A stretch of 64,000 nt of DNA from a virus: IMG/VR virus record IMGVR_UViG_3300029305_006219; one strand, written 5' to 3'. Position 1 is the first letter of the stretch; the number at the start of each line of letters is the position of its first letter. A program made the translations under genes and the position numbers. The notes under the pieces are model-generated. The model was not told where the DNA came from. It saw only the letters and a program-made list of their open reading frames with translations, and searched no databases. Positions 8,619 to 46,257 of this stretch are shown piece after piece.

Positions 8619-8655
8619 AAAAAAAACAGAAGGCTTTACCCTCTGTTTTCTTTTA
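8619..8655. terminator. bidirectional intrinsic terminator (ends the leftward early operon)
   Basis: An A8 run, then hairpin acagaagg..cctctgt, then a T-rich run. Confidence 0.6.
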
Positions 8656-9232: not shown

Positions 9233-9703
9233 TCACCCCTCGGTAAAGTAGGTGTCAAATTCGCCTTTAGTTTTAAGCGATTCAAGACCTTTCTTCGTGT
9301 ATCTCGTCAAGTCAAGCTTAAAGTATTCACCGCCTTGCTTGAACACTATCATTTTACCCGCCTTGACGATTTTACAGTAGTCTGCATTTTCCGATATAGC
9401 GGTTTCGATTGCTTGGATAATTCCGTTCTTAGTTTTATCCTCTTTCACTACCCTCTCGCGCTGTGTCTTTTGCTTATACTCGGTTGATTTAGCTTTATGA
9501 ACCGTTGCGCTAACTCGATTCTCTTTAGCTTTTGCGGTGAGTGCTTGTTCTTCTTCGTTGTCGATATAATCGTTATCAAAGAGCCAAAGGTCAACCGCCT
9601 CTTGCCGTGAGCATTTAAGCATACGCATATTCAGCTCTATTGCCTCATTCGGTACTCGCACTGTGCGCCCGTTCTCAAGGGTATAAAGGCTATAATCTGC
9701 CAT
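9233..9703 (-). CDS. hypothetical protein (156 aa)
   Basis: Intact ORF with a TGA stop. A class-A promoter lies directly upstream. Confidence 0.55.
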   Translation of the reverse strand: MADYSLYTLENGRTVRVPNEAIELNMRMLKCSRQEAVDLWLFDNDYIDNEEEQALTAKAKENRVSATVHKAKSTEYKQKTQRERVVKEDKTKNGIIQAIETAISENADYCKIVKAGKMIVFKQGGEYFKLDLTRYTKKGLESLKTKGEFDTYFTEG

Positions 9704-9730
9704 TGGTTTTTACCTCTCTTTCTGTCCTCT

Positions 9731-9759
9731 TGACATATATATTATACCACACTCTTGGT
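9731..9759 (-). promoter_or_regulatory. early leftward promoter (class A: TTGACA-N17-TGgTATAAT plus an upstream A/T tract)
   Basis: The reverse complement reads cTTGACAaatgaccaagagtgtggTATAAT. On the minus strand an A-tract aaaaaatttttcaaaaac lies upstream of the -35. Confidence 0.55.
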
Positions 9760-9816
9760 CATTTGTCAAGAGGTTTGGTAAAAGTTTTTGAAAAATTTTT
9801 TTGGTATGAGGGAGAA

Positions 9817-10227
9817 TTACTCTCCCTCTACCTCGTCTACTACCCCGTAATTAAGGGAGTAGTATGCAACTTTCTTTTCAAGGGTGCGCTTAAAGTCTGC
9901 GCTCTTGGACACGATAGCGGTAATCATCTGTGACGATACGTTATCTCCGTTAGCTCTCTTATACTCTTTGATAGAATCGACCTTGAGGAGTGAGCCAACG
10001 GTCATTCCCTTTTCATCTACACACTCGGCGAGAGCGTCCTTGATAAGTTCGGTTACTGCGAGAGCGTCTTTCTGCGCAGGAGTGAGAGAAGCGGACTTTG
10101 AGTTCTTACGGGAGAGAAGCTCTATCTCGTGAGCCATAACATCTGCCCACTCGGTTTTGCCGTTCTCTATGAGGAACGCTTTGATGTTCTCAAAATTCTC
10201 TCTCTTGGTGATTTTCTTTTCTGCCAT
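9817..10227 (-). CDS. small protein, paralog family member 2 (136 aa)
   Basis: Similar in length and blocks to 1225..1614 and 10799..11203, e.g. ...SSQMITAIVSKSADFKRTLEKKVAYYSL. Confidence 0.55.
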   Translation of the reverse strand: MAEKKITKRENFENIKAFLIENGKTEWADVMAHEIELLSRKNSKSASLTPAQKDALAVTELIKDALAECVDEKGMTVGSLLKVDSIKEYKRANGDNVSSQMITAIVSKSADFKRTLEKKVAYYSLNYGVVDEVEGE

Positions 10228-10306
10228 AGTTTTCTACCTTTGCGATCTGTGACCGCCCTTTCAAAATTTTTTATTTCAAGAGGATTTTCCTCTTGATTAC
10301 ATATAT

Positions 10307-10335
10307 ATTATATCACAAGTTTGTGATTTTGTCAA
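10307..10335 (-). promoter_or_regulatory. early leftward promoter (class A)
   Basis: The minus strand reads TTGACA-N17-TATAAT (plus-strand attatatc...ttgtcaagggg). Confidence 0.5.
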
Positions 10336-10429
10336 GGGGTTTTTGAAAAGTTTTTCAAAAATTTTTTATTTTTTTCAGTGGTTGCAACTACGGGACGATG
10401 CCTCGCAAGGTCGTTCTATCCGTCACCGC

Positions 10430-10476
10430 CCCTTGACTACGATAATATTATATCATAAAAAGATAAATTTGTCAAT
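10430..10476 (-). promoter_or_regulatory. early leftward promoter (class B, with upstream TGCACAA operators)
   Basis: The minus strand reads TTGACAaatttatctttttatgaTATAAT. It lies about 80 nt upstream of the class-A promoter, a tandem arrangement. Confidence 0.45.
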
Positions 10477-10491
10477 AGAAAATGGGAAAAT

Positions 10492-10545
10492 AATTTGCAC
10501 AAATTTGAGAGGAATTTTGGTGAGAAAATTGTGCAACTTGCACAA
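10492..10545. promoter_or_regulatory. operator-like palindromes AATTTGCACAAATT and TTGTGCAAcTTGCACAA
   Basis: A perfect 8-1-8 inverted repeat at 10529-10545. The same 17-mer recurs at 12857-12873 and 16958-16974, and related half-sites occur upstream of other class-B promoters. Confidence 0.5.
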
Positions 10546-10557
10546 AAACGCACAAAT

Positions 10558-10625
10558 CGGCCCAGCGGCGGCCGCCGTTGGGCCGGTCAAAAAAAGACCT
10601 CTGCCGTCGCAGAGGTCTATCCTCG
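10558..10625 (-). terminator. tandem terminator: a GC-rich palindrome plus a hairpin with T7
   Basis: ggcccagcggcggccgccgttgggcc, then hairpin agacctctg..cagaggtct followed on the minus strand by T7. Confidence 0.5.
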
Positions 10626-10798
10626 AGGTTGACCATTCTCGCTTTCTCGCCACTCCTTGCGCATAGGGGACTTTGGTTTTAATGGTCTGCAAAGGCGTGT
10701 GATTTGAACACACATCTGTTGGAAACGAAACCAACTGTTCTTCCATTAAACTACCCTTTGTTATGTATGAGGGGCGCATTTGCGCCCCTGTGCCTCAC

Positions 10799-11203
10799 TC
10801 ACGCAAGGCGAAAGTAAGTGACCTTTTTGTCAATGGTCTTGACTACATCACCGCAGTCAACGAGCTTTTTAAGCATAGAGGAAACTCGCTGTGAAGATGT
10901 TTCCTTACCATCTGCCCACTCAAACTCTGCGATACGAGAATCCTTTGCTATCGCACCGCACTGCATACCCTTTACATCGGTTGCTTCTGCGAGAACATCA
11001 TGAATGAGGTCAAGGAAAGTATCAACTTCCTCTGCGCGCTTTGCGCTGACCTTACCACTCTTGCTTTCAAGCTGACCGAGCTTCTTTTCGGCAAACTCGA
11101 TTACTTTATCCATAGGGATTGTGGTCGGCTCTCCGCTTGCCATCTTGATGATTTCCTCATACATCTGCTTCTGTGTGTACTTGATTTCCTTGATTTCTGC
11201 CAT
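10799..11203 (-). CDS. small protein, paralog family member 3 (134 aa)
   Basis: Third member of the family, e.g. ...SSQRVSSMLKKLVDCGDVVKTIDKKVTYFRLA. TGA stop. Confidence 0.55.
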   Translation of the reverse strand: MAEIKEIKYTQKQMYEEIIKMASGEPTTIPMDKVIEFAEKKLGQLESKSGKVSAKRAEEVDTFLDLIHDVLAEATDVKGMQCGAIAKDSRIAEFEWADGKETSSQRVSSMLKKLVDCGDVVKTIDKKVTYFRLA

Positions 11204-11354
11204 AATTTTTTTCCTCTCTTGCTATTAGGTTGCAACCCTTTAATTTTATTTATCAGAGGTATTCCCTCTTGATTACATATATATTATACCATACTTTTTG
11301 GTATTTGTCAATAGGTTTTTGAAAAATTTTTTATTTTTTTTCTTGGGTAGAGGG

Positions 11355-12074
11355 TTATTCACCCTCTACCTCTTTGCGCTTATGAAAGGGATATACCCAT
11401 TCACCCTCTGGAGTTAAGCAACCGAGTTTCGTGCGCTCTTGGAAGATATTACAACCTCTTTTTCCAAGTTCACAAAGAATACGGAGTTCCCATTGAACAT
11501 CGGAAAGTGCGGTATGTTCCTCAACAAAATCTTTATCTTGGTTAAGAAATGCGGTTACACCCTCAACAGAGGTCGGTATATATTTACCACTTGGAGTGCG
11601 GAGTTCGTGTTCGTTGCAAAATGCGATATAATCTGCGGTAGAGCATATGTCGTATTGTGCATTACACCATATATCTATAACCTCGATTTTGTCAAGTGGA
11701 TTCAAAATACCGAGCGCAGTTGCGGTTCTGCGGAATTTGTCCTCGTCAAACTCGGAGTTATAGGCAAAGCCATACTGTATGCCATATCGGTCAATATCTC
11801 TTGCTATTTGCTCAAATATCTGTTTTTCGGTACGGAGTATTGCCGTTCCGTTCTCAACATTCAAGTCAAACTTTGCGAGTTTTTCTGCTTTGACGAACAT
11901 ATCATTCAAGAGCCAAATGCGGTTGTGATAATGTTTGCCTACAAGATAGTCTTTGCCTTTGAGTATCTTATACTTAAAGGTTGTTAAGTCAACATCTGCT
12001 ATACAATAGCCTATGTTAAGTAGTGTTTGGGTACAACACCCTGCGGTTTCGGTATCAAATACCATAATGTTCAT
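11355..12074 (-). CDS. DEDDh-family 3'-5' exonuclease (DnaQ / RNase T-like), 239 aa
   Basis: Exo I motif MVFDTETAG, a later FDxxF block and the Exo III motif H-TALSDVQWE. Intact ORF with a TAA stop. Confidence 0.7.
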   Translation of the reverse strand: MNIMVFDTETAGCCTQTLLNIGYCIADVDLTTFKYKILKGKDYLVGKHYHNRIWLLNDMFVKAEKLAKFDLNVENGTAILRTEKQIFEQIARDIDRYGIQYGFAYNSEFDEDKFRRTATALGILNPLDKIEVIDIWCNAQYDICSTADYIAFCNEHELRTPSGKYIPTSVEGVTAFLNQDKDFVEEHTALSDVQWELRILCELGKRGCNIFQERTKLGCLTPEGEWVYPFHKRKEVEGE

Positions 12075-12159
12075 TTTTTCTTTTCCTCTCTTTCTGTCAT
12101 AGGGAGTAGCCCTCGCTCTCCACTCGACATATATATTATATCACATCTTGACGAATTTG

Positions 12160-12606
12160 TCAAGAGGTTTTACAAAATTTTTTCAAAATTTCAAAAATTT
12201 TTTCGGGCGGAAATGCGTCACCCTTAGTCCACTCAAGGCGGTTGCGCTCTTCATCGTCAAACAGTATGCCCTCACTCTTGGCTACGGACGATTTGGGTGT
12301 GCCATATGGAACGATATGCAATTCATCAAAAATAACGGACTTCAAGTGCTTTTTGAGCCATTTGCGCTTGGCTTTAGTGACCGCCTTGTTATAGTCCTCA
12401 GTTGCGGCTTTAGACAGCCACGATATAACACCTATATGAACGCCATTGCGCTGAGCCTTATTCAATGCTCTTGCAAGTGCAGACATATTGTGCATAGGTC
12501 TTGCTTCTTCATATGGGCGCGTTCGCTTGGCTTCAAGGTCATCGAGCCAGCCTTCGACCGCATAAAGGTCAGCAACGGTGCCGTCAAGGTCTAAATAAAT
12601 TGTCAT
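12160..12606 (-). CDS. HAD-superfamily 5'(3')-deoxyribonucleotidase-like phosphatase (NT5C-like), 148 aa
   Basis: HAD motif I LDLDGTVADL at the N-terminus. Size and layout are typical of phage NT5C-like enzymes. Confidence 0.6.
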   Translation of the reverse strand: MTIYLDLDGTVADLYAVEGWLDDLEAKRTRPYEEARPMHNMSALARALNKAQRNGVHIGVISWLSKAATEDYNKAVTKAKRKWLKKHLKSVIFDELHIVPYGTPKSSVAKSEGILFDDEERNRLEWTKGDAFPPEKIFEILKKFCKTS

Positions 12607-12640
12607 TTGGTTTAGTTCCTTTCTTCCTTACTGCTCTTAT

Positions 12641-12669
12641 ATTATACCATACTTTGAGCGATTTGTCAA
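12641..12669 (-). promoter_or_regulatory. early leftward promoter (class A)
   Basis: Plus-strand attatacc...ttgtcaagggg with a 17-nt spacer. A second, class-B promoter lies at about 12745-12795. Confidence 0.5.
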
Positions 12670-12856
12670 GGGGTTTTTGAAAAATTTTTTCAAAAATTTT
12701 TGAGTGTCCACTGATTAGCAAGTCCATTTCACTGCTTTTGTTTCTCACCCCTTGACTACGATAATATTATACCACAAAGGGCGCAAAAAGTCAAGCGGTT
12801 TTGGGAATTTTCTTTTCGTCAATTTGCACAAACTTTTGGCGAAAAAATGCGTGGAA

Positions 12857-12935
12857 TTGTGCAATTTGCACAAAAACGGCGCCACACCGATCGGTGGCGC
12901 GCCGACCAAAAAGAGGGAGATTAATCTCCCTCTAT
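12857..12935 (-). promoter_or_regulatory. regulatory/insulator cassette: TTGTGCAAtTTGCACAA, then the GC palindrome ggcgccaCACCGATCGGTGgcgcgcc, then a terminator hairpin
   Basis: Same element order as at 10492-10625. The terminator hairpin agagggagattaatctccctct overlaps the TAA stop of gene 12921..13130. Confidence 0.5.
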
Positions 12936-13130
12936 TATGATTTTATTGATAACTTTTGCATAGTCTTCTTGCGCTCTTCGGAATGCTTGTGCCGCAGTAT
13001 GCAAAGGGCATTCTTCGCAATCAATTTCGCCGCACTGTATATGAATGCAGGGGTCAATCATTATAGCTTCAAGAGTGTCGTGCTGTTCTGTTGCGGTTAT
13101 TGTGACTATGATTTTCATATTTACCTCCAA
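12921..13130 (-). CDS. small Cys-containing protein (69 aa)
   Basis: ORF from the track with a TAA stop. Confidence 0.45.
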   Translation of the reverse strand: MEVNMKIIVTITATEQHDTLEAIMIDPCIHIQCGEIDCEECPLHTAAQAFRRAQEDYAKVINKIIIEGD

Positions 13131-13381
13131 ATTAAATTGATAAGATAATAAGTATTCATCGCAAATAATGCGACATTAAGTATTACAAGATTTATGCGCC
13201 TTGCGCTAAAGCAAAATGCGGTTGCGATTGCCGAGCCGATGAAGAATAATACTGTCATATCGGCGCCACACATAACACCTATTGCGCAAGCGGTATAGAT
13301 TAGTGCGGTGATATCGGTGATATCAAATTCATAGGGGCGGTCAAGGCTGAAATAGGTTTTTAGTTTACCAATCAAAGTCAT
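13121..13381 (-). CDS. small membrane protein (86 aa)
   Basis: Two hydrophobic segments. TAA stop. Confidence 0.5.
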   Translation of the reverse strand: MTLIGKLKTYFSLDRPYEFDITDITALIYTACAIGVMCGADMTVLFFIGSAIATAFCFSARRINLVILNVALFAMNTYYLINLIWR

Positions 13382-13553
13382 CTACCTCTTCTTCCTCATA
13401 ATCATTAGTATAATAATATTGCGTGGTTTTGAACTCTTTACCACAACCGCATTTATATTTGCGACTTGCGACAATTTGCTCTCCGTCCTCTTCATATTTT
13501 GCCGATAAATATTTAACTTGGGCGGTGCTACCGCAATTTGGACATTTAATCAT
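13365..13553 (-). CDS. small zinc-ribbon protein (62 aa)
   Basis: CPNCG...CGCGKEF motifs. Confidence 0.5.
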   Translation of the reverse strand: MIKCPNCGSTAQVKYLSAKYEEDGEQIVASRKYKCGCGKEFKTTQYYYTNDYEEEEVDDFDW

Positions 13554-13753
13554 TTTAATTTAAGCTCCTTTCTAATATTGATAATTCCACGAAATTCTGC
13601 GGTATAGATTGCTTCACAGTGAGGGCAACAAACTTTAGCCTCAAAATCTGCTTCATACCCGTCAAAATTCCATATCTTTGCATCCACATCTCCACAGAAC
13701 AAGTCATCTCTGGTTATAAGTTTATCGCAATTTGGGCATTTAATCATTTTCAA
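13550..13753 (-). CDS. small zinc-ribbon protein (67 aa)
   Basis: CPNC...CCPHC motifs. Confidence 0.5.
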   Translation of the reverse strand: MKMIKCPNCDKLITRDDLFCGDVDAKIWNFDGYEADFEAKVCCPHCEAIYTAEFRGIINIRKELKLK

Positions 13754-13945
13754 ATTCTCCTTGATATTCTCTTATTGTGCAATATCCACTCCAACGCCAT
13801 TCAAGGCATTGTTGATTGATATATTCTTGTGCCTGTTCTTGACTATCAAAGATAGGCGGTTTATTATCTCCTATGAATCCTTTATGCAAGAAGCCGTTTG
13901 GACAAGAGCGAGTATGAATATAAATTACATATTGCATAAGTATTA
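13740..13945 (-). CDS. small protein (about 68 aa); the longer track ORF 13740..14273 is rejected because it runs through the tRNA
   Basis: An internal ATG with RBS aagaggtaatacttATG lies just downstream of the tRNA. Upstream of it, the ORF translates tRNA and promoter DNA (..GSIPIRF.. matches the T-arm). Confidence 0.35.
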
Positions 13946-13957
13946 CCTCTCTTTTTT

Positions 13958-14032
13958 TGGTGAAGCGAATGGGAATTGAACCCACAACGCAGTTGAATAG
14001 TGTCAACCTCATTACCTTTGTGATACCGCTTC
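13958..14032 (-). tRNA. tRNA with CTA in the anticodon loop: candidate amber (UAG) suppressor tRNA
   Basis: Minus-strand sequence GAAGCGGTATCACAAAGGTAATGAGGTTGACACTATTCAACTGCGTTGTGGGTTCAATTCCCATTCGCTTCACCA. The 7-bp acceptor stem has one G.U pair. U8, A14 and GG are in the D-loop. The T-arm is GTGGG/CCCAT with loop TTCAATT. CCA is encoded. The anticodon stem GTTGA/TCAAC is perfect but the loop CACTAT has 6 nt, which is atypical, so the fold needs software confirmation. Confidence 0.6.
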
Positions 14033-14045
14033 TTATTACATTTAT

Positions 14046-14074
14046 ATTATACCATATAATCTTGCTTTTGTCAA
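14046..14074 (-). promoter_or_regulatory. consensus promoter driving the tRNA (TTGACA-N17-TGgTATAAT)
   Basis: The reverse complement reads cTTGACAaaagcaagattatatggTATAAT. The predicted transcription start is about 7 nt before the tRNA 5' end. Confidence 0.55.
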
Positions 14075-14217
14075 GAGGTTTTCGAAAAATATTTGCAACT
14101 ATTTTTCTTATCTCCGATACTTTCCTACTCAAAGCTTTCGTGTCCGTTCTCTTGTTGTACACCAAGTTTCTGATTTCCATTCCTTGCAAGTTAATTTCTC
14201 CGCACGAGGTTCCCCCT

Positions 14218-14258
14218 CTTGACATTATTATTATATCATACAATCGGGAAAATGTCAA
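14218..14258 (-). promoter_or_regulatory. second (class-B) promoter upstream of the tRNA
   Basis: The reverse complement reads cTTGACAttttcccgattgtatgaTATAAT. TGCACAA-type sites lie at 14275-14319, a GC palindrome at 14321-14347 and a terminator at about 14350-14385 further upstream. Confidence 0.5.
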
Positions 14259-14461
14259 GTGGTAATGTTGCACAAAGTTTCAACAAAAAAATGGCGGGAA
14301 GTGTACAAAATGCACAAAACGGAACGCGCCGGCCGGGCTCGTTCCGCTCGGATTTCAGGCAAAAAAGAAAAAACCCAGAACTCATGAAAAGCTCTGGAAA
14401 TTTGTTGAGAGGTCTACTTCGTGGAAATTCGGACTTGGCGCGACCGCCTTCGTCCGTCAGC

Positions 14462-14764
14462 TTAATGGCTGAAGTGTTTCAACACGTCTTGTACATTGTA
14501 CTCATTTTCATCATCACTCATAATTATAATTTTATTTTCCCATTCAGCAGGAATGCTTAAAATTTTAAATGTTTCCTTTAAGAATGAAATCATATTCGTA
14601 CAATCATTTTTTTGATTGTCAGAATGAAAGAGAAGGGCGCCCAACTCTTCACAATAAAGTGCATGAAGTGGATAGTCTTGCGCCGAGAGGGTTTCCCAAT
14701 CAAGGGGAGTAAGTGATGATTCAAAAGAAGTGATGACAAGAGCGTGGATGAAGTGATACTTCAT
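14462..14764 (-). CDS. hypothetical protein (100 aa)
   Basis: ORF from the track with a TAA stop. Confidence 0.5.
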   Translation of the reverse strand: MKYHFIHALVITSFESSLTPLDWETLSAQDYPLHALYCEELGALLFHSDNQKNDCTNMISFLKETFKILSIPAEWENKIIIMSDDENEYNVQDVLKHFSH

Positions 14765-14846
14765 ACCGCGTGACCTCCTTGTATCTCTTATTTCTTTTTA
14801 CATTTATATTATAATATAAAATTTTATAAAAATCAATGGGTGTGGA

Positions 14847-15055
14847 TTATTCCACACCCAAGAGTTCCTTTATTTTATTGACTACTTGCTCTTGTGCTTG
14901 TTTCAGAATGTAATAATCACAATTATCAAGTGTTGCAATATAATCATCTACCGCTATGCGGATTTCAATTTCATTACTATTATGATTAAGATCATACTCC
15001 TTAATGATTTCTTTTTCATTGATTTCTACGCCCGTAGTAATCTCTATATACATAT
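14847..15055 (-). CDS. small protein (about 68 aa, starting MYIEITTGVEINEKE)
   Basis: A strong RBS aaaaggagaaaacaatATG lies inside track ORF 14847..15173. A class-A promoter at 15386-15414 serves the operon. Confidence 0.45.
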
Positions 15056-15096
15056 TGTTTTCTCCTTTTGCGAATTTCCAAATTTTTCCAATGCGC

Positions 15097-15354
15097 CTAC
15101 CAAGCGACTCGGATATGATATCTACCTTCAAAAAGGTTTTTTTCAATCTCAGCCTTGTAGCCAAATTTTTCAAGATTCGCTCTTATGAGTTCGACCTCAT
15201 CTTTGGAAACCTCTTTTACTCCACTGAAATAACCTTGTGAAGCCCTTTTTTTGATGAAGCGCAACATCTCTTTCATTGCCCACGAATGCATGAATTGGTT
15301 TTGATTATTTTCTGCCATCTCTCTTGCTTCCTTTGCGGTCATAGGGTTTTTCAT
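15097..15354 (-). CDS. hypothetical protein (85 aa); the only early gene found that ends on TAG
   Basis: The stop codon is cta on the plus strand at 15097-15099, which is TAG on the minus strand. The frame stays open for about 22 more codons. Confidence 0.5.
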   Translation of the reverse strand: MKNPMTAKEAREMAENNQNQFMHSWAMKEMLRFIKKRASQGYFSGVKEVSKDEVELIRANLEKFGYKAEIEKNLFEGRYHIRVAW

Positions 15355-15428
15355 AAGTATTTCCTCTCTTTCTTTTAGTATATATATTATACCATACTTT
15401 TATATATTTGTCAAGTAGTTTTTGAAAA

Positions 15429-15653
15429 TTATTTGAAAAAAATTTCAAGCACAATTACATCGTCGCAACAACCCTCAATAGTTATTTCCATACTATCTAT
15501 CTTGCGGTTAGCATACTCTTTAATATGCTCACATTCTTTAACATACCAATCGATTGATTGAGCACCAAGCCATTGTTCTGCTTTGAGTAAGAAGTTGTCA
15601 TAAATGCGGATTTTATCTATGTTGTAGATAAGCGGAAGTTGTGCAAGTGTCAT
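15429..15653 (-). CDS. hypothetical protein (74 aa)
   Basis: RBS AGAGAGG. A class-B promoter lies at 15686-15714. Confidence 0.5.
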   Translation of the reverse strand: MTLAQLPLIYNIDKIRIYDNFLLKAEQWLGAQSIDWYVKECEHIKEYANRKIDSMEITIEGCCDDVIVLEIFFK

Positions 15654-15832
15654 AAGTCATTTTCCTCTCTTTCTTTTACACTTATATTATACCACAAATA
15701 TCGGGAATTGTCAATAGGTAATAATCAACAAAGTTTTGCGCCGATTTTTGTGCAAAATGCCAGCCCACAGATAAAACGGCTCGGCGCGCCCGATGCCGAG
15801 CCGCCAAAAAACAAAAGAGGGCAATCGCCCTC

Positions 15833-16213
15833 TTAGGTTTGATATTTAGTTATCTCTGTGGAAGAGCTTTGCGCCACCATTAGCGAAATACACCTTTGCA
15901 TTGTATCGAGTTCAACCACTCTGATGACTTTGCCTTTAGCATACGCATATCCGCACTCCCAAGCTGATCCAAGGTCACCATTGGCGCCTTCGCAAAAATA
16001 GAGAATTTCATCACATTCATCTATTGCTTGAACGTCGTGTTGGAATACCTTGCGCGCCCATTCGGAGTTAGGTAAAGCTTTAGCATTAGGTATCTCTAAT
16101 TCGTGGGGAACGTAAACTTTATATCCTAACTGTCGTAAGAGTTTTGCGTGCTTGTTTATTCTGTCCTTTTGGCTTTCGGTAAACATAGCACTTGCTATAT
16201 AAAACTTTTTCAT
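15833..16213 (-). CDS. nucleoside 2-deoxyribosyltransferase-like protein (NDT / Rcl-DNPH1 fold), 126 aa
   Basis: N-terminal FYIASAMFTE and catalytic-region DLGSAWECGYAYAKGKVI match the NDT family pattern (YxAGxxF ... D.G...E.GyA.a.gK). Confidence 0.55.
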   Translation of the reverse strand: MKKFYIASAMFTESQKDRINKHAKLLRQLGYKVYVPHELEIPNAKALPNSEWARKVFQHDVQAIDECDEILYFCEGANGDLGSAWECGYAYAKGKVIRVVELDTMQRCISLMVAQSSSTEITKYQT

Positions 16214-16238
16214 ATCTCACCTCTTGATAGTGGATAGA

Positions 16239-16457
16239 TTATTCATCTATCCACTCTTTTACTTTATAGGCTGTAACCTCGACAATATCAGCGGTGAATT
16301 TTATCTCTCCCGTAAAGTTATAGATTACGTAAGTATTACCTCTGTTATTTGTCGTAAACTCTCTTGCAAACTGAATTGCCATACTAAGATCGTCAAAATC
16401 AGCAATATGTTTGCCGTCCGCATAGACGCCATAGTCAAGAATGTCAAATTTTACCAT
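16239..16457 (-). CDS. hypothetical protein (72 aa)
   Basis: RBS AAGGAAGG. A class-B promoter lies at about 16486-16522, directly preceded by ATTTTGCACAAAATT. Confidence 0.5.
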   Translation of the reverse strand: MVKFDILDYGVYADGKHIADFDDLSMAIQFAREFTTNNRGNTYVIYNFTGEIKFTADIVEVTAYKVKEWIDE

Positions 16458-16555
16458 AATATTAATACCTTCCTTCCTTTACTGTGCCTATATTATATCA
16501 TATTACTTGCCTCTTGTCAATAGGCATTTTGCACAAAATTTTGCGGCGGGTCTTG

Positions 16556-16864
16556 TTAACAATATACAAGACCCATATCACGCCAACGGAGAATAGAAAT
16601 TTGAGAGCAGGCGCGCCCGACCTCAAGCGCTTTTTTCAAGGTACTTTCGCGATGGCTCTTGTCTATGTAATAAACTCCAGAACTATACCATATACCACAG
16701 TTGCCTTCGTATGCCTTAACGGCGTTGATTGCTTCGCGCGGGTCACGGGTTTCGATACCTTCGGTGGCTACTTGGTAGCCTGTTTTGAACGTGACGCGCT
16801 GACCCTTTTTGAGAGTTAAGCCGTCATTATCTTTAAGTTTGAGAATCGAGCGAATGTTAATCAT
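16556..16864 (-). CDS. hypothetical protein (102 aa)
   Basis: A class-B promoter at about 16895-16925, with TTGTGCAAcTTGCACAA at 16958-16974 upstream of it. Confidence 0.5.
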   Translation of the reverse strand: MINIRSILKLKDNDGLTLKKGQRVTFKTGYQVATEGIETRDPREAINAVKAYEGNCGIWYSSGVYYIDKSHRESTLKKALEVGRACSQISILRWRDMGLVYC

Positions 16865-17041
16865 AGGTGTTTCCCCTTCCTTTATCTTACGTACTTATTA
16901 TACCATAAAAGCGGGAATTTGTCAATAGGCAAAAGTAACAAAGTTTTGATAGTAAATTTGTGCAACTTGCACAACTATGCGTAAAGCGTCACGCCGCGGC
17001 CCTTGGCGTGACGGCGAAAAAAAAAGAGGGCGCAAGCGCCC

Positions 17042-17242
17042 TCATATGAAGTCGGCAAATTGGTCTTCCACCCAAGCCATTATAAGAGGATTAAAGGTTT
17101 GTATCTCAACCTCTACGCATGAGGGATGGACTTGGAGAAGAATTGCCTCTCCTGCGTTATTAGCGGCGAGGAATGAGCAGACTTTTTGCACCGCCATACC
17201 GCTTTCAAAAGTTTTATTAAGCATAAAATTCTTATACTGCAT
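17042..17242 (-). CDS. small protein (about 66 aa)
   Basis: RBS ataagaaaggagatatatATG. It is the C-terminal part of track ORF 17042..17443, whose 5' part overlaps gene 17271..17558 out of frame. Confidence 0.4.
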   Translation of the reverse strand: MQYKNFMLNKTFESGMAVQKVCSFLAANNAGEAILLQVHPSCVEVEIQTFNPLIMAWVEDQFADFI

Positions 17243-17270
17243 ATATATCTCCTTTCTTATGGGGATTGCC

Positions 17271-17558
17271 TTAGCAATCCCCCGTATAGCAACCCATATA
17301 GGGGTCAAAGCCGTTTTCATCAGGCTCTTCTTCCTCATAGTCATACCAGTCGTCATTATAATAGAGGGTCTCAGAGCCGTGATGGTAAATGATGCGCGCC
17401 ATATCTGTCGCCTCTGCTTCAGTAAGATAGCCATTAGCAACAAGCTCTATAAGTCTGCCTATTGCAAGAGAATGAGTATCTTCAAGTCCAAATTCCGTAC
17501 AAGCAAGATTGAAGCAAGTCTGCAAGTCGAGTTTTGTGTAATCCATAATGCACCTCAT
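17271..17558 (-). CDS. hypothetical acidic protein (95 aa)
   Basis: ORF from the track. A class-B promoter lies at about 17596-17632. Confidence 0.5.
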   Translation of the reverse strand: MRCIMDYTKLDLQTCFNLACTEFGLEDTHSLAIGRLIELVANGYLTEAEATDMARIIYHHGSETLYYNDDWYDYEEEEPDENGFDPYMGCYTGDC

Positions 17559-17832
17559 AGTATTTATTTGAGAGTCTATTCCCTCTCTTCTTGCCTATAT
17601 TATATCATATATTCTTGCATTTGTCAATGAATAAAATGTAAACAATATATGAATTATGGGACGGGATCCAATCATAGTTTATTCAATCAATTGAAATAAA
17701 AAATTTACAAATTGTTCACAAATTGCTTTAACGGTGCGCGCCGACCGTGCCCGCACCGAGCGATATAAAAAGGCGCGCCAAAGGTCACCCTAAGGCGCGT
17801 TATAGTGTTGATATGAGATGCTAAGGGCGCGC

Positions 17833-18681: not shown

Positions 18682-19269
18682 TATTATATACCTCTCTTTT
18701 CTTTATCTTGACGGGGCTATTATATAGCCCCGTATAATTTCATAGGGTTACTTATATTGATTTTCTCTTGAGTGTTTTCTAACTGTTGTATTAAAGCTTT
18801 TTCCTCTAACTCTTGTAAAGCAAGTTCAAACTCATACTCTCGACGGTTATCAATGTGCTTGTCGACCACTATTTTATTTTTCATTATCTTCACCCCCTTT
18901 GTCTATAATGGTAATAGCAATTTTTGCAACAAGTGCAATTAAACCTATTACTAACCAAGTGCCAATAAATTCACCTAACATTTTTTTACCTCTCTGTTTT
19001 GATTTTTTGTTTGCGCTCTCTCTCTTGGAGCATACTCATTGTATCACTTCTTTTTGAACTCCAAGTTTCGAAATTATGAACTTTTTGTAAATCCGACGGG
19101 ATTTTTCAAATTTTTTTTGTTAACAACTACACAACAATCTCGACATCTTTTGTTCATAATTTATTCATAACTTTTTTAGTTATTTTCGGGAAAAAAATTA
19201 TTCACAATTTGTTCACAATTCCGCTCACGACATCTCCCTCCTAGAATATTTCTTTTATTTCAAAAAACG

Positions 19270-19346: not shown

Positions 19347-19826
19347 TTATAGTTCCTTAAAACGCTCGTTTTCTATTTCTCCTAGACTCTTTCGAATCTC
19401 TTCAGGATAATGATGTTTTACGCATTTAAAAATATTCTTTTTACCCATTGGATATAATTCGCCAACATGGCGGAAAAAGAAGCATATAGGCGGCAAATGT
19501 GTAACTATATCACTTCCATTTCTAAACATGGTGAAATGTGCCCAGCGCTCTCTTAATTCTTTCTTAACGCGCCAGCCGCCATAGATTCTAGGTCCATCAA
19601 ATCCAATACCGGTTAACCCCTCTGCGCGCAAGTCTTCTCTATGAAACCACACAGCTTCATGACATAATGCGGCAAGAGCTGCGCCATGACTATAACCAAC
19701 TACTACAATACGTTTCCACCTATAATCGCCGCTAAATCCTTTCTCGGTTGCGCGCCTAATAACAATATCTTCTATTGTTTTCCAGCACTTTAAGAAGCCT
19801 CCATGTACCCTATATTTTATCTTCAT
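19347..19826 (-). CDS. class-3 lipase-like alpha/beta-hydrolase fragment (159 aa), possibly N-terminally truncated
   Basis: GxSxG nucleophile elbow GYSHGAALA. The protein is shorter than typical Lipase_3 family members. No start codon is available further upstream in frame. Confidence 0.4.
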   Translation of the reverse strand: MKIKYRVHGGFLKCWKTIEDIVIRRATEKGFSGDYRWKRIVVVGYSHGAALAALCHEAVWFHREDLRAEGLTGIGFDGPRIYGGWRVKKELRERWAHFTMFRNGSDIVTHLPPICFFFRHVGELYPMGKKNIFKCVKHHYPEEIRKSLGEIENERFKEL

Positions 19827-20167
19827 ATCTTTATAGGGGCGGCGCCAGTAGGCGAAGTTAGCGCACCAATCTAGCTTACCGCGACTTGGCTAGAAAAAGA
19901 TGTAAAGTGTCTTATCGCTCTCCAAAAATGCATAATTTACTTTGCCCTCTGCCTCTTGGTACTCAATCCAATTATTGCACCAATTAAATAACTATACTAA
20001 ATTCATGGCGCGCCCACCCTTAGCCGCTTAAGGTAACTGTCTAAGGAAGATATAACCTAGACCGGCGCTCTCTTAAAATAATAATCATCTCTTTTCTCCT
20101 TTCATATGATGATACTATTATTATAACAGATTTTTTTATAAAGTCAAGTACTTATTTCATTAACCTC

Positions 20168-20196
20168 TTGACATAGTAAAAATTTTTTGGTATAAT
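20168..20196 (+). promoter_or_regulatory. consensus sigma-70 promoter at the head of the rightward structural operon (TTGACA-N17-TATAAT)
   Basis: ctcTTGACAtagtaaaaattttttggTATAATttat, then the RBS aaaggag and the ATG at 20227. Confidence 0.6.
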
Positions 20197-20226: not shown

Positions 20227-21399
20227 ATGGATACATTACAAACTTTAGACGACCTTTTGTCTGATGAGGATTTAGATATTGAAGACTCTTCTGAACAAGA
20301 GGAAGAAAATATAGAAGAGAAAATTATCACTGAAGATATTGCGCAAACTATAAAATTAGATTATAAGTTAGCTACCTGCGAAGAGCGCTCGGCGTTGGTT
20401 AATAAGATTATAGCCCAAACCCCTGCCGCCTCTTTAACAAATCGTTATTTAGAAATTTTAGGCGATTATATTATGGGAGGTATCACAAAAGAAGAACGTA
20501 AATCGCACCTATACCTTACTGACAATAGAATGATTACTGTTGCAAGGCGCGAAACGTCTTTTGAAGGTTTGGCAGAAAAATTTGAAAATGGAGAAGATGG
20601 TATTTATAATTTAATGACAAATGATAAAAATATTATCTTTGCACCAAAAAATACAATCACTGAAGAAGATATAGAAAATGTTCCTGGTCTTAAGCAATTG
20701 CGCGAGGCTATTATTCAAATTGAAGAGGAGGGGAAACGTGCTATAGGAAAGCGCAAATACCTTCTCAAAAAGCAACTCATAGAAATGCGTAAAGACCAAT
20801 ATATCTTAAAGAATTCATATTAGGCCCCCATGGTTTGCACTCCTTGTGCAAAAGGAGCAAATAAAATTGATTTAAGTGAAAAAAAATATGTAGATGAAAA
20901 TGGAGATCCACAAAGCACAGGTTTAATTTCTTTTTTTAAACCAGAGCATATTCAAGCAATTTTAAATAATTATAATGCTTTAAAAATAGAGACTAAAGGT
21001 AAATATTCTAGTGACTTTTTTTATTTGATGGAAGATTTTGATAAATTATTACATAAGGCATTAGATAATTATCCTATGTATTTTGATATTGTAAAAATGA
21101 AAGTAAATGGAAAAACAAATATTGAAATTCAAAAAATGTTAAAAGAAAAACATAATACAAGTTTTACTGTGTAGTACATTTCCAGTCTATGGTGTAAAAA
21201 AATTCCTAAAATTATAGCTGAGAAAGAACAGCATGACTTCTTAATCTGGTATTATCGTAATGAACAAAAAGGCCCATGGAAGCGTTGCTCTTGTTGTAAA
21301 GAATTTAAACCAGCTAATTCGCGCTTTTTCTCTAAGAATCGCACAAGTAAAGATGGATTTTATAGCATTTGCAAAATGTGCCGCAATAAGAAAAAATAA
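20227..21399 (+). CDS. hypothetical protein (about 390 aa, 2 in-frame TAG) with an acidic N-terminus and a C-terminal CxxC..CxxC motif
   Basis: Track ORFs 20227..20823 and 20830..21174 plus a further segment share frame 1. They are separated only by TAG codons and end on TAA at 21397-21399. Confidence 0.5.
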
Positions 21400-36133: not shown

Positions 36134-36162
36134 TTGACTTTTTAAAAATTTTTTCTTATAAT
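36134..36162 (+). promoter_or_regulatory. internal consensus promoter TTGACT-N17-TATAAT
   Basis: aacTTGACTttttaaaaattttttctTATAAT lies upstream of the chaperone and tape measure genes. Confidence 0.5.
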
Positions 36163-36733: not shown

Positions 36734-36828
36734 GGTCAAAATAAGATAAATTTAATACCCTAACTATTATATATTAGTAGTATAGGGTATTTTATTTTAC
36801 CTAAAACGAGAAACAAGGAGGATATATA

Positions 36829-39800
36829 ATGGCTAATTAGGAAAGAATTAATTTCTAGGTTGGTTTTAATGTAGATTAGTCTGGTTTAAATTAGTTAAAA
36901 ACAAGTTTATCTAATTTATAGAATATGAAACCAGCGGACTTAACTAATATTAAAAATTTGGCTGAGGCTAAAAAAGAATTATCTATTATTCAACAAGAGG
37001 CTAAGAAAGTATAGAATGCACTTGAAGCTAGTTTTAATCCTACGTTAGGCACGCATAACATTGATATTTTTAAACAAAAATTAATAGAAAATGGTGCTTC
37101 TATTTAGGATATAAAAAATAAATTTGCATCTGCGGGTGCCGAAGGTACAACTGCATTTAGAAATTTAGCAACAGCAATTTCATCAACTAAATTACCGCTT
37201 CAAGAGACACATAATTTATTGCGCTCTATGGGCACTACATTGATGAATACTATTAAATGGTCTATTGCATCTTCAGCTTTATAGACGATCACTTCTTCTG
37301 TTCAATAGGCATGGAATTATACTAAATAGCTAGATAAATCATTAAACAATATTATGCTTGTTACTGATAAAAGCGCAGAGTCAATGGAGAAATTTGCGCG
37401 TCAAGCAAATAAAGCGGCTAGGGAATTAGGTAAAAGTACTAAAGATTATGCCAATGCTGCTTTAATATATTACCAACAAGGTTTATCTGAAGAAGAGGTA
37501 AGAGCTAGAACAGAAACAACGCTGAAAGTTGCAAATGTTACGAAACAAAGCACAGAAATGGTTTCTGAACAATTAACCGCGGTTTGGAATGGTTATAAGG
37601 TATAGGCGCAAGAAGCTGAAGCTTATATCGATAAAATTGCAGTTGTAGCAGCAACAACCGCAGCCGACTTAGAAGAGCTCTCTACTGGTATGTCTAAAGT
37701 TGCTTCTGCGGCTAGCAATATGGGAGTTAATATTGATTAGTTAAATGCAATGTTAGCAACTGTTATTTCCGTTACGCGCCAGGCGCCTGAGTCTGTTGGT
37801 ACAGCATTTAAAACCATTTTTGCTCGTATTAGTGATATTGAAGCGGGCTTAGATGCAGAAGCTACTCTTGGAGAATACACAAAACAAATGTCGCAATTGG
37901 GCTTTGATGTTTTAGATGCGAATAATAAACTACGCGATATGGGTAGCGTTGTTGAGGAAATTGGTAGTAAATGGAATACATTGTCGCGTGAACAATAGAT
38001 TTCATTGGCATAGACAATGGCTGGTACTCGTCAGTATAATAATCTTTTAGCGTTATTTGAAAACTGGAGTATGTATGAGAAGTCTGTACGAGATTCTGCT
38101 ACTGCAACCGGATTTTTACAAGAACAACAAGAAAAATATTTAGATTCTGTTGAAGCTCATTTAGAACAATTAAGCGCGGCAGGTGAGCGTGTATATGATG
38201 CTTTGTTTGATTCAAAAAGTACTAATAATCTTATTGATATTTTAACTGATTTTGTTACATTTTTTGGTAATGCTATTGAATCAATAGGGGGCGGCGGTAC
38301 TTTATTAATGGCTATTTTACCAGTAATGACTAAATTATTTTCTGGTAGTTTAGCATCTGGCATGGCTACATTTGTTACTAACATTCAAAATGCATAGCAG
38401 TCTGCTCAATCGCTGCGTGGATTATTAGAGAATATTAAAGAAATTCGTTTAAATGGGGATACTTTGACTTCTGATTATGATGAAAAAATTAGCGCTTTAA
38501 GAGAAAATTTAGTATTATTAAAGCAATAGGGTATTATTACAAATGAAACTTTTAATAATTTAACAGATACTATTAATGCTTTTGCAAATGCAGCTAATGA
38601 ATACGAGAAATCTATAGAAGCTTATGATCCTACTACAATAGGAGATTAGTATACAAAAATTTTATAGCGTGGCTTTAATATGCCTCCTGCTGGAAGTAAA
38701 TCCTCTGTCACAGAAGAGTCTGCATAGCTTTATATAAATCGTTTATCTGAATATGCTCGTGAAAATCCATTTTCAAATGAAGATTTTATAAGAATGGAAA
38801 ATTCAAGTGTTGAATATATGGATGCTTCTGCTGAAAATTCTTATAAGAGATTATATTTTGAGTTAGAGAATGTTTAGGCTGCATATAACGAAACTATAAA
38901 ACGTGCATAGAATTTAACAAAAATTATTAACAATACATCATGGGATAAATTTAAGCAAGAAGGAAGCCCTGCGGTTAAAAAGTTTAATGACGAACTTCAG
39001 CATACGTTAAATGATGTTAATAAAATTTCATAGTCTGGATTACTTTCTGGATAGGACTTAACTCATTTTAATAAATATGCGTCAGTATTAAAAGGATTTA
39101 ATAAAGATACAAAAATTACTCAAGAATAGTTTGATCAAATATAGACAGCCGTGTCTGAAATTGAGCGTTTAACTAAACGCGCAATGGGCAAGGGCAATAC
39201 AGAAGCTAAAAAGATGTAGCAATCTTTACGTGAGCTTGGCGCAGCGGGGGTTGAGGCAAAATCTACTATGGATTAGTTTGGTGTGGCTGCTGAAATGGCA
39301 TTGCGTAAAGCTAACCTTGAAAAGCAAATTAATTCATTTATTCAATTAACATCTAATATTAGTATGGCAATTTCTGCGTTGACAATATTGTCTAATTTAG
39401 GTTCTATTTGGAAAAATGAAGATTTAACTGTTGGAGAAAAACTGTTATAGACATTATAGAATACTGTTACTACAATATCATTATTAAGTCCATTGATTAC
39501 AGGTCTAATTAAATTATATAGTACCCATAATGCTAAACTTGCAGAAAAAAATATTTAGACTGCTCAAGAAATTGCTTTAACACAAATTTTAACAACATTA
39601 AAAGATAAAGAAGCTAATGCAGAAACTAAACTGTGGGCAGCCAAATGTTTAGTAGATTTAGCCGGGGATGAAATAAATGATGAACTACGCGAAGAAATTA
39701 ATAATCATATTTTAAACGGTGAAGCATTAGATAATGAAACTATAGCAATTTTAAAAAATGCTGCTGCTAAAAAAATTGCTAATAATACTGATAATCCTTC

Positions 39801-45800: not shown

Positions 45801-46257
45801 CATAACGCAAAACCAAAACTCAAATGATAGAAGTGGAGTATATTTAGATAATGCTGAAGAGGTTCTCAATTTTACAGAACTTTATAATAATTATAGACGA
45901 TTATCTAAGTTTGATACTGGTGGTTACACAGGAGACTGGGGCGCCGAGGGCCGACTTGCGATGCTTCATGAGAAAGAAATAGTTCTCAATAAACAAGACT
46001 CTTCGAATTTCCTTGATGCACTTGATATTCTCCGCACTTTAAATCTTTCGATGGTTGATTAGATGGCGAATTACAATTTTGGTTTTACGCATTCTCAAGC
46101 GGCATGGGAAGCGCTTAATAGTTCGACTATTGAATAGATTGTTAATATTAATGCGGAGTTCCCGAATGCTACTGACAAGGACGAAATTAAAGAAGCTTTT
46201 GAAGACTTGGTTAATTTAGCATTGTAGTATACAGGTAAGAATTCTCGAGTTAAATAA
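36829..46257 (+). CDS. tail tape measure protein (about 3142 aa, many tens of in-frame TAG codons)
   Basis: Track ORFs 37354, 37750, 38017, 40423, 41170, 43078 and 45739 are all in frame 1. Hand translation of the intervening stretches meets only TAG, never TAA or TGA, until the TAA at 46255-46257. Gly/Ala-rich glycine-zipper TM-like segments (GWKAGGAGAKAGAAKGGAAGIGQAIGA..) are present. The TP901-type region EELSTGMSKVASAASNMGVNID and the C-terminal FDTGGYTGDWG block are recognisable. A hairpin terminator follows at 46261-46295. Confidence 0.6.

Follow-up and report, generated by a model that had tools for sequence, protein, structure and literature searches.

The early region of an uncultured phage, lying within a window of 64,000 nucleotides (IMG/VR virus record IMGVR_UViG_3300029305_006219; "the window" always denotes this whole stretch), carries a dense array of consensus promoters on one strand. 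This array is best explained as a series of host sigma-A early promoters set in composite terminator/promoter cassettes, which would divide the early genes of a TAG-recoded phage of Clostridia/Bacillota into insulated units, and a probability of roughly 0.75 is assigned to this reading. It is built on four direct observations, namely the anatomy of the sequence, its conservation among relatives, the breakpoints between related genomes and the host distribution of a palindrome found at some of the promoters.

A dense array of consensus promoters

The window, which has a GC content of 35%, was searched for the motif TTGACA-N17-TATAAT with at most one mismatch, 100 shuffles serving as control. 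The motif is matched 22 times against 1.26 expected (maximum of 4 in the 100 shuffles), and 14 of these matches lie on the minus strand between 9741 and 17627, in a region (~8.6-19 kb) whose genes are on the minus strand. An independent promoter scan scored 13 of the 14 sites at 12/12 and the last one, 12766-12794, where the -35 reads TTGACT, at 11/12. The spacer is exactly 17 nt and a TG is present at -15/-14 at every one of the 14 sites; such an extended -10 element (TGn) is typical of Bacillota promoters. A 15th, degenerate site, TTGATT-N17-TATAAT without TG, is found at 14808-14836 ahead of gene 14462-14764, and its ortholog in relatives reads TTGACT or TTGACA and is a good promoter there. 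The initial annotation of this DNA had proposed at least 15 near-consensus promoters with intact -35, -10 and extended -10 elements. The present count of 14 strong sites and one degenerate site, 13 of the 14 being perfect and all 14 carrying the TG, agrees with that proposal, and the positions given at the time are correct within 0-21 nt. For the promoters named class A below, the -10 ends are 9741 (formerly 9731), 10307, 11283, 12135, 12641, 14046 and 15386; the remaining seven are 10447, 12766, 14230, 15686, 16492, 16897 and 17599.

All 14 sites are intergenic. Their -10 hexamers face either start codons preceded by a Shine-Dalgarno (SD) sequence at a distance of 31-79 nt, a tRNA-like gene at 13 nt, or another cassette, a placement that supports the earlier view that nearly every early gene or gene pair, as well as a tRNA, possesses its own promoter. 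Repeat finding recovered the core of the cassettes in 13 copies and an 88-nt unit in eight copies (the seven class A cassettes and the stacked class B promoter 12794). In correction of an earlier account, the copies are mutually only 61-76% identical over 51-105 nt, which argues for constrained motifs rather than recent duplicates. That phages possess arrays of consensus early promoters is textbook knowledge. Judged from its sequence, the array almost certainly consists of host sigma-A (sigma-70-type) early promoters predicted to be active; the arrangement is a familiar phage strategy, encountered here in an undescribed TAG-recoded clade.

Conservation of the promoters among relatives

Four relatives carry the same arrays: the IMG/VR contigs L001, L002 and L003, and contig L217 (106 kb, ~77% DNA identity), which was binned with a Eubacteriales metagenome-assembled genome (MAG). 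Complete contigs of relatives are available as IMGVR_UViG_3300029305_005988, IMGVR_UViG_3300029305_006221, IMGVR_UViG_3300029305_002985 and JAZKZW010000082. The exonuclease-like early protein is 86-88% identical in L001/L002 and 34% in L003, and the same promoter class occupies the same slot in the window and in all four relatives. Conservation was measured on nine orthologous promoter pairs between the window and L003, for which the proteins are 30-79% identical. Identity reaches 100% for the -10 hexamer, 100% for the TG and 91% for the -35 hexamer, and falls to 56% for the spacer, 59% for the 24 nt upstream and 52% for the 20 nt downstream (+1 region). Hexamers and TG that are conserved while spacers drift leave the footprint expected of sigma-A promoters.

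The same organisation extends well beyond these contigs. The class A pattern of upstream tract and -35 was found in 92 IMG/VR stretches, and 299 distinct perfect promoter sites were collected from 60 fetched loci. In the gut phage phAss-1, a 46-kb region of small genes and tRNAs contains 38 consensus promoters, 36 of them on the gene strand, and in the cultured Enterococcus phage H1 (L100, OP534061) 17 near-consensus sites are packed in the 7.5 kb between 3391 and 10946, about one per small gene. In the H1 record this array occupies 91.5-99.0 kb, and the host of that phage is E. faecium. Many H1 and phAss-1 promoters show a GGGG-TTGACAA-CCCC hairpin centred on the -35. The same consensus, written TTGACW-17-TRTGN-TATANT, was found by means of RNA-seq at 58 early promoters of the Staphylococcus Kayvirus vB_SauM-515A1 (PMC7698491).

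Most genes of the early block are without Pfam or PHROG hit. Among them, the 102-aa early protein encoded at 16556-16864 (minus strand) is 79-86% identical in all relatives, the other L003 early proteins that were compared being at 30-65%; searches of Pfam, PHROG and PDB returned no match for it.

Promoter classes and their proposed organisation into units

The promoters can be sorted by what lies upstream of the core. In class A, represented by seven sites (-35 starts at 9769, 10335, 11311, 12163, 12669, 14074 and 15414), phased A/T tracts such as AAAAATTTTTGAAAAACTTTTCAAAAACCCC, with a phasing of 11-12 nt, are found immediately 5' of the -35. A search combining the UP-element consensus AAAWWTWTTTTNNNAAA, at -40 to -60, with the -35 at a tolerance of three mismatches retrieved all seven sites (14 matches against 0.87 expected), in line with the UP-element-like tract noticed earlier in one class. 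Upstream A-tracts are also a feature of the early promoters of SPO1/SP82. From their sequence, the class A tracts would be contacted by the C-terminal domain of the RNA polymerase alpha subunit (alpha-CTD).

Class B comprises six sites (-35 starts at 10475, 12794, 14258, 15714, 16520 and 16925) from which phased A/T tracts are absent. Their upstream regions present, in this order, a terminator hairpin with its T-run, a second and GC-rich hairpin (hairpin 2) followed by GTTTT, and then TTGTGCAA boxes. This 8-mer occurs 17 times in the window against 3.2 expected, 13 of the copies being located within 10.4-17.0 kb, an enrichment that bears out the TGCACAA boxes reported earlier for one class. 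It forms a perfect 17-bp palindrome, TTGTGCAA-N-TTGCACAA, at three class B sites and direct repeats at one, and a single box is found 8-30 nt 5' of the -35 at most of them. The palindrome always abuts the T-run of hairpin 2, 33-56 nt 5' of the -35, and the pairing of this hairpin is kept while its sequence changes among relatives.

Terminator hairpins with T-runs were located at 10595-10618, 12912-12933, 12879-12900, 14374-14398, 15815-15834 and 17026-17043. Within the window, a terminator-like hairpin is present no more than 170 nt upstream of five of the six class B promoters and of none of the seven class A promoters. Over four phages, the counts become 19/28 for class B and 1/24 for class A (Fisher p = 1.8e-6, a value that overstates the case, orthologous sites not being independent). 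Terminators positioned upstream of class B and not of class A suggest that class B opens insulated units and that class A restarts transcription inside them.

The two-class scheme proposed initially proved too narrow. The site 17599-17627, previously assigned to class B at about 17596, is devoid of TTGTGCAA box and carries instead TTTGTGAACAATTTGTAAA-type boxes, which define a third upstream type and are found again at 19195-19220 as well as, many times over, in L003. Taken alone, TTGTRAACA boxes are not enriched in the window (3 against 1.5 expected), though they are clustered in relatives. Another type is recognised by a conserved spacer, AAAAATTTTT, between -35 and -10, and is found at 1664-1692, 1763-1791 and 14808-14836 on the minus strand and at 20168-20196 and 36134-36162 on the plus strand. 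This conserved-spacer type dominates the tRNA-rich region of phAss-1 (L098, 2-36 kb) with about 20 copies and may constitute a distinct temporal class.

Read from right to left, the early block (~8.6-17.7 kb) resolves into about seven units. The first three begin at promoters 17627, B16925 and B16520, respectively; the fourth contains B15714, A15414 and then 14836; the fifth, B14258 stacked on A14074, holds the tRNA-like gene and five small genes; the sixth, B12794 stacked on A12669, followed by A12163 and A11311, has a tRNA at its end; the seventh, B10475 stacked on A10335, then A9769, runs to a terminator at about 8622-8652. In the proposed mechanism, a class B promoter (or the variant 17627) would open each unit, mostly directly behind tandem intrinsic terminators, and class A promoters would restart transcription inside the units, ahead of individual genes and of the tRNA-like gene. 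The consensus elements and the UP-like tract would allow unmodified host RNA polymerase to express simultaneously a large number of small genes for takeover and nucleotide metabolism. The elements are listed below with the genes that each promoter is predicted to serve.

8622..8652, minus strand: terminator-like hairpin with T8 closing the leftward early block, read directly from the sequence
9741..9769, minus strand: class A promoter, TTGACA-N17-TGGTATAAT; UP-like tract 9770-9803; GTCAAGAGG at +1 (9726-9734); serves 9233-9703 and following genes
10307..10335, minus strand: class A promoter; UP-like tract 10336-10376; 5' hairpin of the leader CAAGAGG-aaaat-CCTCTTG; serves 9817-10227
10447..10475, minus strand: class B promoter, opens a unit; transcript predicted to begin with GTCAAGGGG and to run 111 nt into A10335
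10495..10545, no strand assigned: TTGTGCAA boxes of promoter 10475; single box 10495-10502, palindrome TTGTGCAAgTTGCACAA 10529-10545
10558..10618, minus strand: tandem terminators ending the upstream unit; hairpin 1 with T7 10595-10618, GC-rich hairpin 2 10558-10586
10689..10760, minus strand: tRNA gene closing a unit; anticodon loop of 8 nt, UUUCGUUU
11283..11311, minus strand: class A promoter, internal; UP-like tract 11312-11343; serves 10799-11203 and tRNA 10689-10760
12135..12163, minus strand: class A promoter, internal; UP-like tract 12164-12204; serves exonuclease-like gene 11355-12074
12641..12669, minus strand: class A promoter; UP-like tract 12670-12703; serves nucleotidase-like gene 12160-12606
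12766..12794, minus strand: class B promoter (TTGACT), opens a unit; stacked 96 nt upstream of A12669
12824..12933, minus strand: upstream module of 12794; box 12824-12831, palindrome 12857-12873, hairpin 2 12879-12900, hairpin 1 12912-12933
13961..14032, minus strand: tRNA-like gene starting 13 nt past the -10 of A14074; 6-nt anticodon loop CACUAU, which contains CUA
14046..14074, minus strand: class A promoter; UP-like tract 14075-14108; serves the tRNA-like gene, then genes 13937 to 12921
14230..14258, minus strand: class B promoter, opens a unit; stacked 155 nt upstream of A14074; the L002 slot holds a 155-aa gene
14268..14398, minus strand: upstream module of 14258; box 14268-14275, direct TTTTGTRCA repeats ~14300-14319, hairpin 2 14320-14346, terminator 1 14374-14398
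14808..14836, minus strand: degenerate conserved-spacer promoter, TTGATT-N17-TATAAT, directly behind hairpin 14837-14860; serves 14462-14764
15386..15414, minus strand: class A promoter, internal; UP-like tract 15415-15447; serves 15097-15354 and 14847-15053
15686..15714, minus strand: class B promoter, opens a unit; serves 15429-15653, a gene absent from L001/L002 (B and A stacked there)
15748..15834, minus strand: upstream module of 15714; box 15748-15755, hairpin 2 15778-15802, terminator 1 15815-15834
16492..16520, minus strand: class B promoter; box 16529-16536; behind a 9-bp hairpin overlapping the stop codon of 16556-16864; serves 16239-16457 and 15833-16213
16897..16925, minus strand: class B promoter, opens a unit; serves the conserved 102-aa gene 16556-16864
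16958..17043, minus strand: upstream module of 16925; palindrome TTGTGCAAgTTGCACAA 16958-16974, hairpin 2 16988-17014, terminator 1 17026-17043
17599..17627, minus strand: third-type promoter; TTTGTGAACAATTTGTAAA boxes ~17700-17722; serves 17271-17546 and 17042-17242
20168..20196, plus strand: perfect divergent conserved-spacer promoter ahead of sigma-factor-like gene 20227-21399 (2 in-frame TAG)

Promoter stacks and putative joints for gene shuffling

Three true B-then-A stacks are present in the window (10475>10335, 12794>12669 and 14258>14074); a further pair reported ahead of 15097-15354 is not a stack and encloses the 74-aa gene 15429-15653. The idea that stacking on a single target is a design is probably incorrect, the same slots being occupied by a gene in one relative and vacant in another. 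In the window, B15714 and A15414 are separated by the 74-aa gene, whereas in L001/L002 the same B and A have nothing between them. Conversely, B14258 is followed directly by A14074 in the window, whereas the order in L002 is B, a 155-aa gene, A and A. Since the arrangements B-A and B-gene-A are interconvertible among relatives, the stacks are best read as empty gene slots.

The breakpoints between genomes are located in the same elements. Colinear blastn blocks between the window and L001/L002 end at +12 to +71 from a -35 start, and the genes beyond are unrelated. Genes 15429-15653, 15097-15354 and 14847-15053, as well as the tRNA-like gene, have no counterpart in the relatives, and about half of the early-block open reading frames (ORFs) are without ortholog in any of L001-L003. 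These comparisons suggest that genes are gained, lost and replaced between cassettes acting as recombination joints, in which case the B-then-A stacks would represent slots that are currently empty.

The most serious competing explanation holds that the stacks are purposeful tandem promoters, one regulated and one constitutive, directed at the same target. The stacks 10475>10335 and 12794>12669 are indeed kept in the window, L001 and L002, the second one also in L003, and all stacked class B transcripts are predicted to start with GTCAAGRGG. A purposeful tandem is nevertheless considered the less probable of the two, because close relatives differ by the presence of a gene in two of the four B/A intervals, and because the spacers differ in sequence and length (67-149 nt), show no significant folding and contain nothing that Rfam recognises. 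Of nine fold z-scores computed for B-to-A spacers, eight range from -1.6 to +0.15 and one is -2.5, so that no significant structure is seen. A small RNA or riboswitch in these spacers was likewise considered and set aside, the only Rfam hits being the two tRNAs, the folds weak and the sequences unconserved.

The class B palindrome and its candidate host factor

The palindrome was scanned with its flanks, as TTTTGTGCAANTTGCACAAWT, in 185,579 species genomes, and the figures on matches given here rest on those listed. At least 120 matches were obtained against about 2-10 expected from a base-composition estimate of our own, an enrichment of at least 10-fold. About 110 of the 120 matches listed (~92%) are in Clostridia, and the taxa represented are Oscillospiraceae, Lachnospiraceae, Christensenellaceae, Ruminococcus and Eubacteriales, together with one complete Massilimicrobiota chromosome. 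In 108 of the 120 cases the palindrome is intergenic, and the flanks are mutually unrelated; few matches are phage arrays, L124 and L217 being relatives of this phage. The genes starting within 250 nt are ordinary chromosomal genes belonging to 78 Pfam families. The palindrome lies in the promoter or 5' untranslated region (5'UTR) of seven PucR-family regulator genes, other neighbours being Ppx/GppA (6), ABC ATPases (4), ROK (3) and MraZ (3), and about 10 sites are found beside DnaA-box clusters. The form encountered in Clostridia reads TTTTGTGCAAnTTGCACAAWT (L101-L220), and its carriers include Massilimicrobiota timonensis and Agathobacter rectalis.

The palindrome is a genuine Clostridial chromosomal cis-element. 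Its intergenic recurrence in Clostridia points to the binding site of a host regulator, and the phage copies are probable sites for such a protein. The "operators" of the initial annotation are retained as boxes and their reading is revised in favour of a host factor, the palindrome being widespread in Clostridial chromosomes. To our knowledge, on inspection by eye, it fits no Rex, CcpA, CodY, LexA, Spo0A, TnrA/GlnR, DnaA or parS motif; judged in the same manner, the single boxes, unlike the palindrome, bear a partial resemblance to a relaxed DnaA box. A literature search for TTGTGCAA/TTGCACAA returned primer noise only, and a narrower one no relevant paper. From the sequence, the factor binding the boxes would be a Clostridial regulator through which the unit-opening promoters would follow the state of the host, or which would strengthen insulation as a roadblock; repression, activation and such a reinforcing roadblock are all possible effects.

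An alternative is that the TTGTGCAA boxes are operators of a phage-encoded early regulator, for example a shut-off repressor, the Clostridial matches being unrelated or a case of reverse mimicry. Phages often shut off their own early promoters, and here the boxes keep fixed positions in relatives as far as phAss-1. The gene of the 102-aa protein is the first one behind the best palindrome, and its product is 79-86% conserved even in L003. This protein has, however, no detectable homolog in phAss-1, which possesses box-type promoters, and no DNA-binding signature in Pfam, PHROGs or PDB, making it an unlikely binder of the boxes. Searches of the other ORFs of the window for a DNA-binding protein gave only weak, sub-threshold helix-turn-helix and zinc-ribbon hits. 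The exact 21-nt palindrome, at least 10-fold enriched in bacteria, is moreover found beside chromosomal genes, ~92% of the matches listed being in Clostridia. A phage regulator is consequently judged unlikely.

Still less probable is the absence of any dedicated binder. In this view the palindrome would be one more weak terminator hairpin, the third in line, the proximal box would be an UP element that has degenerated, and class B would differ from class A only by its weaker upstream tract and its position behind terminators. It is true that a terminator scan flags TTGTGCAAGTTGCACAA with T-rich tails at 10529-10545 and 16958-16974, and that the proximal region of class B aligns with the class A tract. 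The 8-mer nevertheless occurs in three arrangements, palindromic, directly repeated (14300-14319) and single, which fits recognition of DNA better than folding of RNA, and the palindrome is found in at least 120 unrelated Clostridia contexts, often over promoters or 5'UTRs of regulator genes.

Phage identity and TAG recoding

A megablast search of the 9-18 kb region against 50,697 phage records gave no nucleotide match. From 20.2 kb onwards, genes point rightward and long ORFs appear only if TAG is read through, among them one of 3150 codons (36805-46257, tape-measure-like) and one of 1655 codons. Over their 12,291 codons, these rightward ORFs include 190 in-frame TAG, and they stop at TAA or TGA only. 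The 25 leftward early genes, by contrast, show no in-frame TAG in 2,439 codons, and the array block should thus be readable by an unmodified host cell. When TAG is translated as glutamine, the terminase matches only Bacillota phages, at 46% identity for Alicyclobacillus KKP_3916 and Geobacillus E3 and at 42% for Enterococcus VRE9_4, H1 and EF1 and for the gut phage phAss-1. As part of the best explanation, the phage is regarded as a lytic TAG-recoded gut phage of Clostridia/Bacillota.

The sigma-factor-like gene (20227-21399, plus strand) deserves a separate mention. Its 198-aa product up to the first TAG matches phrog_5767 with E = 4e-13, and the 390-aa read-through product matches positions 74-393 of 393 of the same profile with E = 3e-44. 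Since the read-through product matches the profile end to end, the full-length protein should need TAG suppression. On the other side of the divergent promoters 20120-20147 (minus strand) and 20168-20196 (plus strand), a Lipase_3-like gene (19347-20007, minus strand) apparently reads through 2 TAG.

The tRNA-like gene at 13961-14032 scores 38.9 bits with Rfam and folds as a cloverleaf, and was missed by ARAGORN. The corresponding slot of L001 and L002 lacks it, and a search of IMG/VR for an exact 25-mer of this gene gave no match; the gene may represent a candidate amber suppressor, a pseudogene or the product of an assembly indel. For the tRNA at 10689-10760, ARAGORN calls the anticodon "tcgt". 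Its orthologs in L001 (11322-11391) and L002 (11294-11363) read AGG (Pro) and AGT (Thr), and the three genes are near-identical outside the anticodon arm, which indicates that this arm is hypervariable at a single locus.

A more ambitious proposal would tie host state, early transcription and code change into one cascade, with a code-neutral early array wired to the host via a borrowed chromosomal operator. A global Clostridial regulator, whose palindrome is also found at PucR-type genes, ppx and mraZ and near oriC, would then switch or insulate class B, and the cassettes would carry as cargo the parts of the code switch, namely the CUA-containing tRNA-like gene and the TAG-read-through sigma-like gene. 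This cascade is speculative and, taken as a whole, rather improbable.

Comparison with known systems

The closest parallel for the core is provided by the early promoters of T4, described as "uber UP/-35/TGn/-10" (Hinton 2010, PMC2988021). They combine the same four elements for host RNA polymerase in many copies, with further conserved positions around the core, and are used immediately after infection without phage factors, outcompeting host promoters. The present system differs by its Bacillota/Clostridia host (E. coli for T4), by the fact that no Alt-like modification is known here, and by the distribution of its copies in positional classes, unit-opening or internal, one of which has palindromic boxes.

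At the level of the cassettes, the nearest likeness is with the PeSL elements, in which an AT-rich tract, a strong sigma-70 promoter and a stem-loop flank orphan genes and mediate indels and replacements (Arbiol 2010, PMC2839356; Comeau 2014, PMC4122927). Both are intergenic composites of about 100 bp flanking small orphan genes, with endpoints of indels or replacements inside the cassettes. Tandem terminators and a promoter in class B, an A/T tract and a promoter in class A, where hairpins are found at +1 or at the preceding stop codon, and the hairpin around the -35 in H1 all recall PeSL. The latter were, however, defined in T4-like myoviruses of Gram-negative hosts and cyanobacteria (PMC2839356, PMC4122927), whereas here the class B terminators are separate tandem hairpins located upstream and not within the promoter, and the copies are more diverged (61-76%). 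Because the terminase relatives are large Bacillota phages and not T4-like, the cassettes are filed as PeSL-like rather than as PeSL.

Among large lytic Bacillota phages, the Kayvirus vB_SauM-515A1 similarly possesses dozens of promoters and terminators that define many small units, and a phage sigma factor was inferred for its late genes (PMC7698491). It uses the standard code, and its description reports neither a class structure nor a host-type palindrome nor gene swapping bounded by cassettes (PMC7698491). For the palindrome, the nearest precedent is given by the Spo0A sites at early promoters of phi29 and Nf (Castilla-Llorente 2009, PMC2731898), where sites for a host regulator allow the early transcription of lytic Bacillota phages to follow host physiology; the site described here is a candidate. 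Its motif, TTGTGCAAnTTGCACAA, is not a 0A box, and it lies 33-56 nt upstream of the -35, by the terminators, instead of overlapping the core promoter.

The "Caudoviricetes code 15 clade" (Babkin 2023, PMC10607447), under which phAss-1 is filed, consists of gut phages of 120-140 kb that use TAG as glutamine. For phAss-1 itself, Eubacteriales were proposed as hosts, and its terminase is 42% identical to the present one. That phage has 36 tRNAs whereas the window contains only two, both atypical. The phAss-1 paper makes no mention of promoters, sigma factors or early genes (PMC10607447).

Weighing of the proposed organisation

Several points count against the reading of the array as insulated units of host promoters joined by recombining cassettes. 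The pooled counts of terminators include orthologous sites, which are not independent, and the class B site 16520 is without canonical upstream terminator. The single proximal box looks like a class A tract that has diverged (AAAACTTTGTGCAAAAT compared with AAAAACTTTTCAAAAAC), and the palindrome could form a weak hairpin in RNA, with U residues after it. The cassettes are conserved islands between diverged genes, so that alignment blocks are partly expected to end there anyway, and copies only 61-76% identical would limit homologous recombination to short patches, being too diverged for long ones. For 23 consensus promoters predicted in the Kayvirus, the transcriptome showed no visible effect (PMC7698491), and some of the sites described here may therefore be weak or silent.

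A reading of the repeats as recombination or packaging sites, iterons or chance occurrences in AT-rich DNA can practically be discarded: promoter-like hexamers are easily found in this AT-rich genome at low stringency (57 against 36 expected in the window with loose criteria), but a single strand holds 13 sites that match at 12/12, with TG and a spacing of exactly 17 nt, all sites are correctly oriented and spaced before genes, and the hexamers are conserved while spacers drift, under the same consensus that RNA-seq identified in the Kayvirus (PMC7698491).

The organisation proposed here, distinguished from known arrays by its positional class logic and its host-type palindrome in an undescribed recoded clade, provides an explicit transcription map for uncultured TAG-recoded gut phages, a group whose only published description omits promoters, sigma factors and early genes. 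On this map, a host-read block free of in-frame TAG stands apart from the sigma-like gene (2 TAG) and the other rightward genes, which read through TAG. Shuffling of the PeSL type, for which T4-like phages are the only ones described, appears to take place in large Bacillota phages as well, and the cultured relative Enterococcus phage H1 offers a tractable system for the cassette model. The class B palindrome had not been remarked upon before; as an intergenic motif strongly specific to Clostridia, it gives a handle on a regulator of abundant gut bacteria. The cassettes would also supply ready strong promoter and terminator parts for synthetic biology in Clostridia and other Bacillota.

Minor motifs

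Two other short motifs are over-represented. The first, GGCGCGCC, is present in seven copies against 0.2 expected in a genome at 35% GC (12896, 15783, 16610, 17772, 20007, 23200 and 47900). At 12896, 15783 and 17772 it is part of GC-rich hairpins upstream of unit-opening promoters, and at 16610 it belongs to coding sequence. As an independent motif it is probably incidental, four of the seven copies being in or beside the array, in terminator-type hairpins or coding sequence.

The second, GTCAAGRGG or its complement CCYCTTGAC, occurs 11 times against 0.25 expected. CCYCTTGAC corresponds to the -35 and its 5' flank at class A promoters, and GTCAAGRGG is located at +1 to +9 of all stacked class B promoters and of 9769 (9726-9734, 10429-10437, 12748-12756 and 14215-14223, minus strand). 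The motif may act as a 5' stabiliser, form a stem like that of PeSL or be a site for a protein; the role of an SD-mimicking 5' stabiliser at +1 is offered as an idea and not as a finding. Over the 299 perfect promoters of the 60 loci, GTCAAGRGG is mildly tied to long leaders (24/148 against 12/151, p = 0.03), and the first ~22 nt of the predicted transcripts are purine-rich regardless of a nearby start codon.

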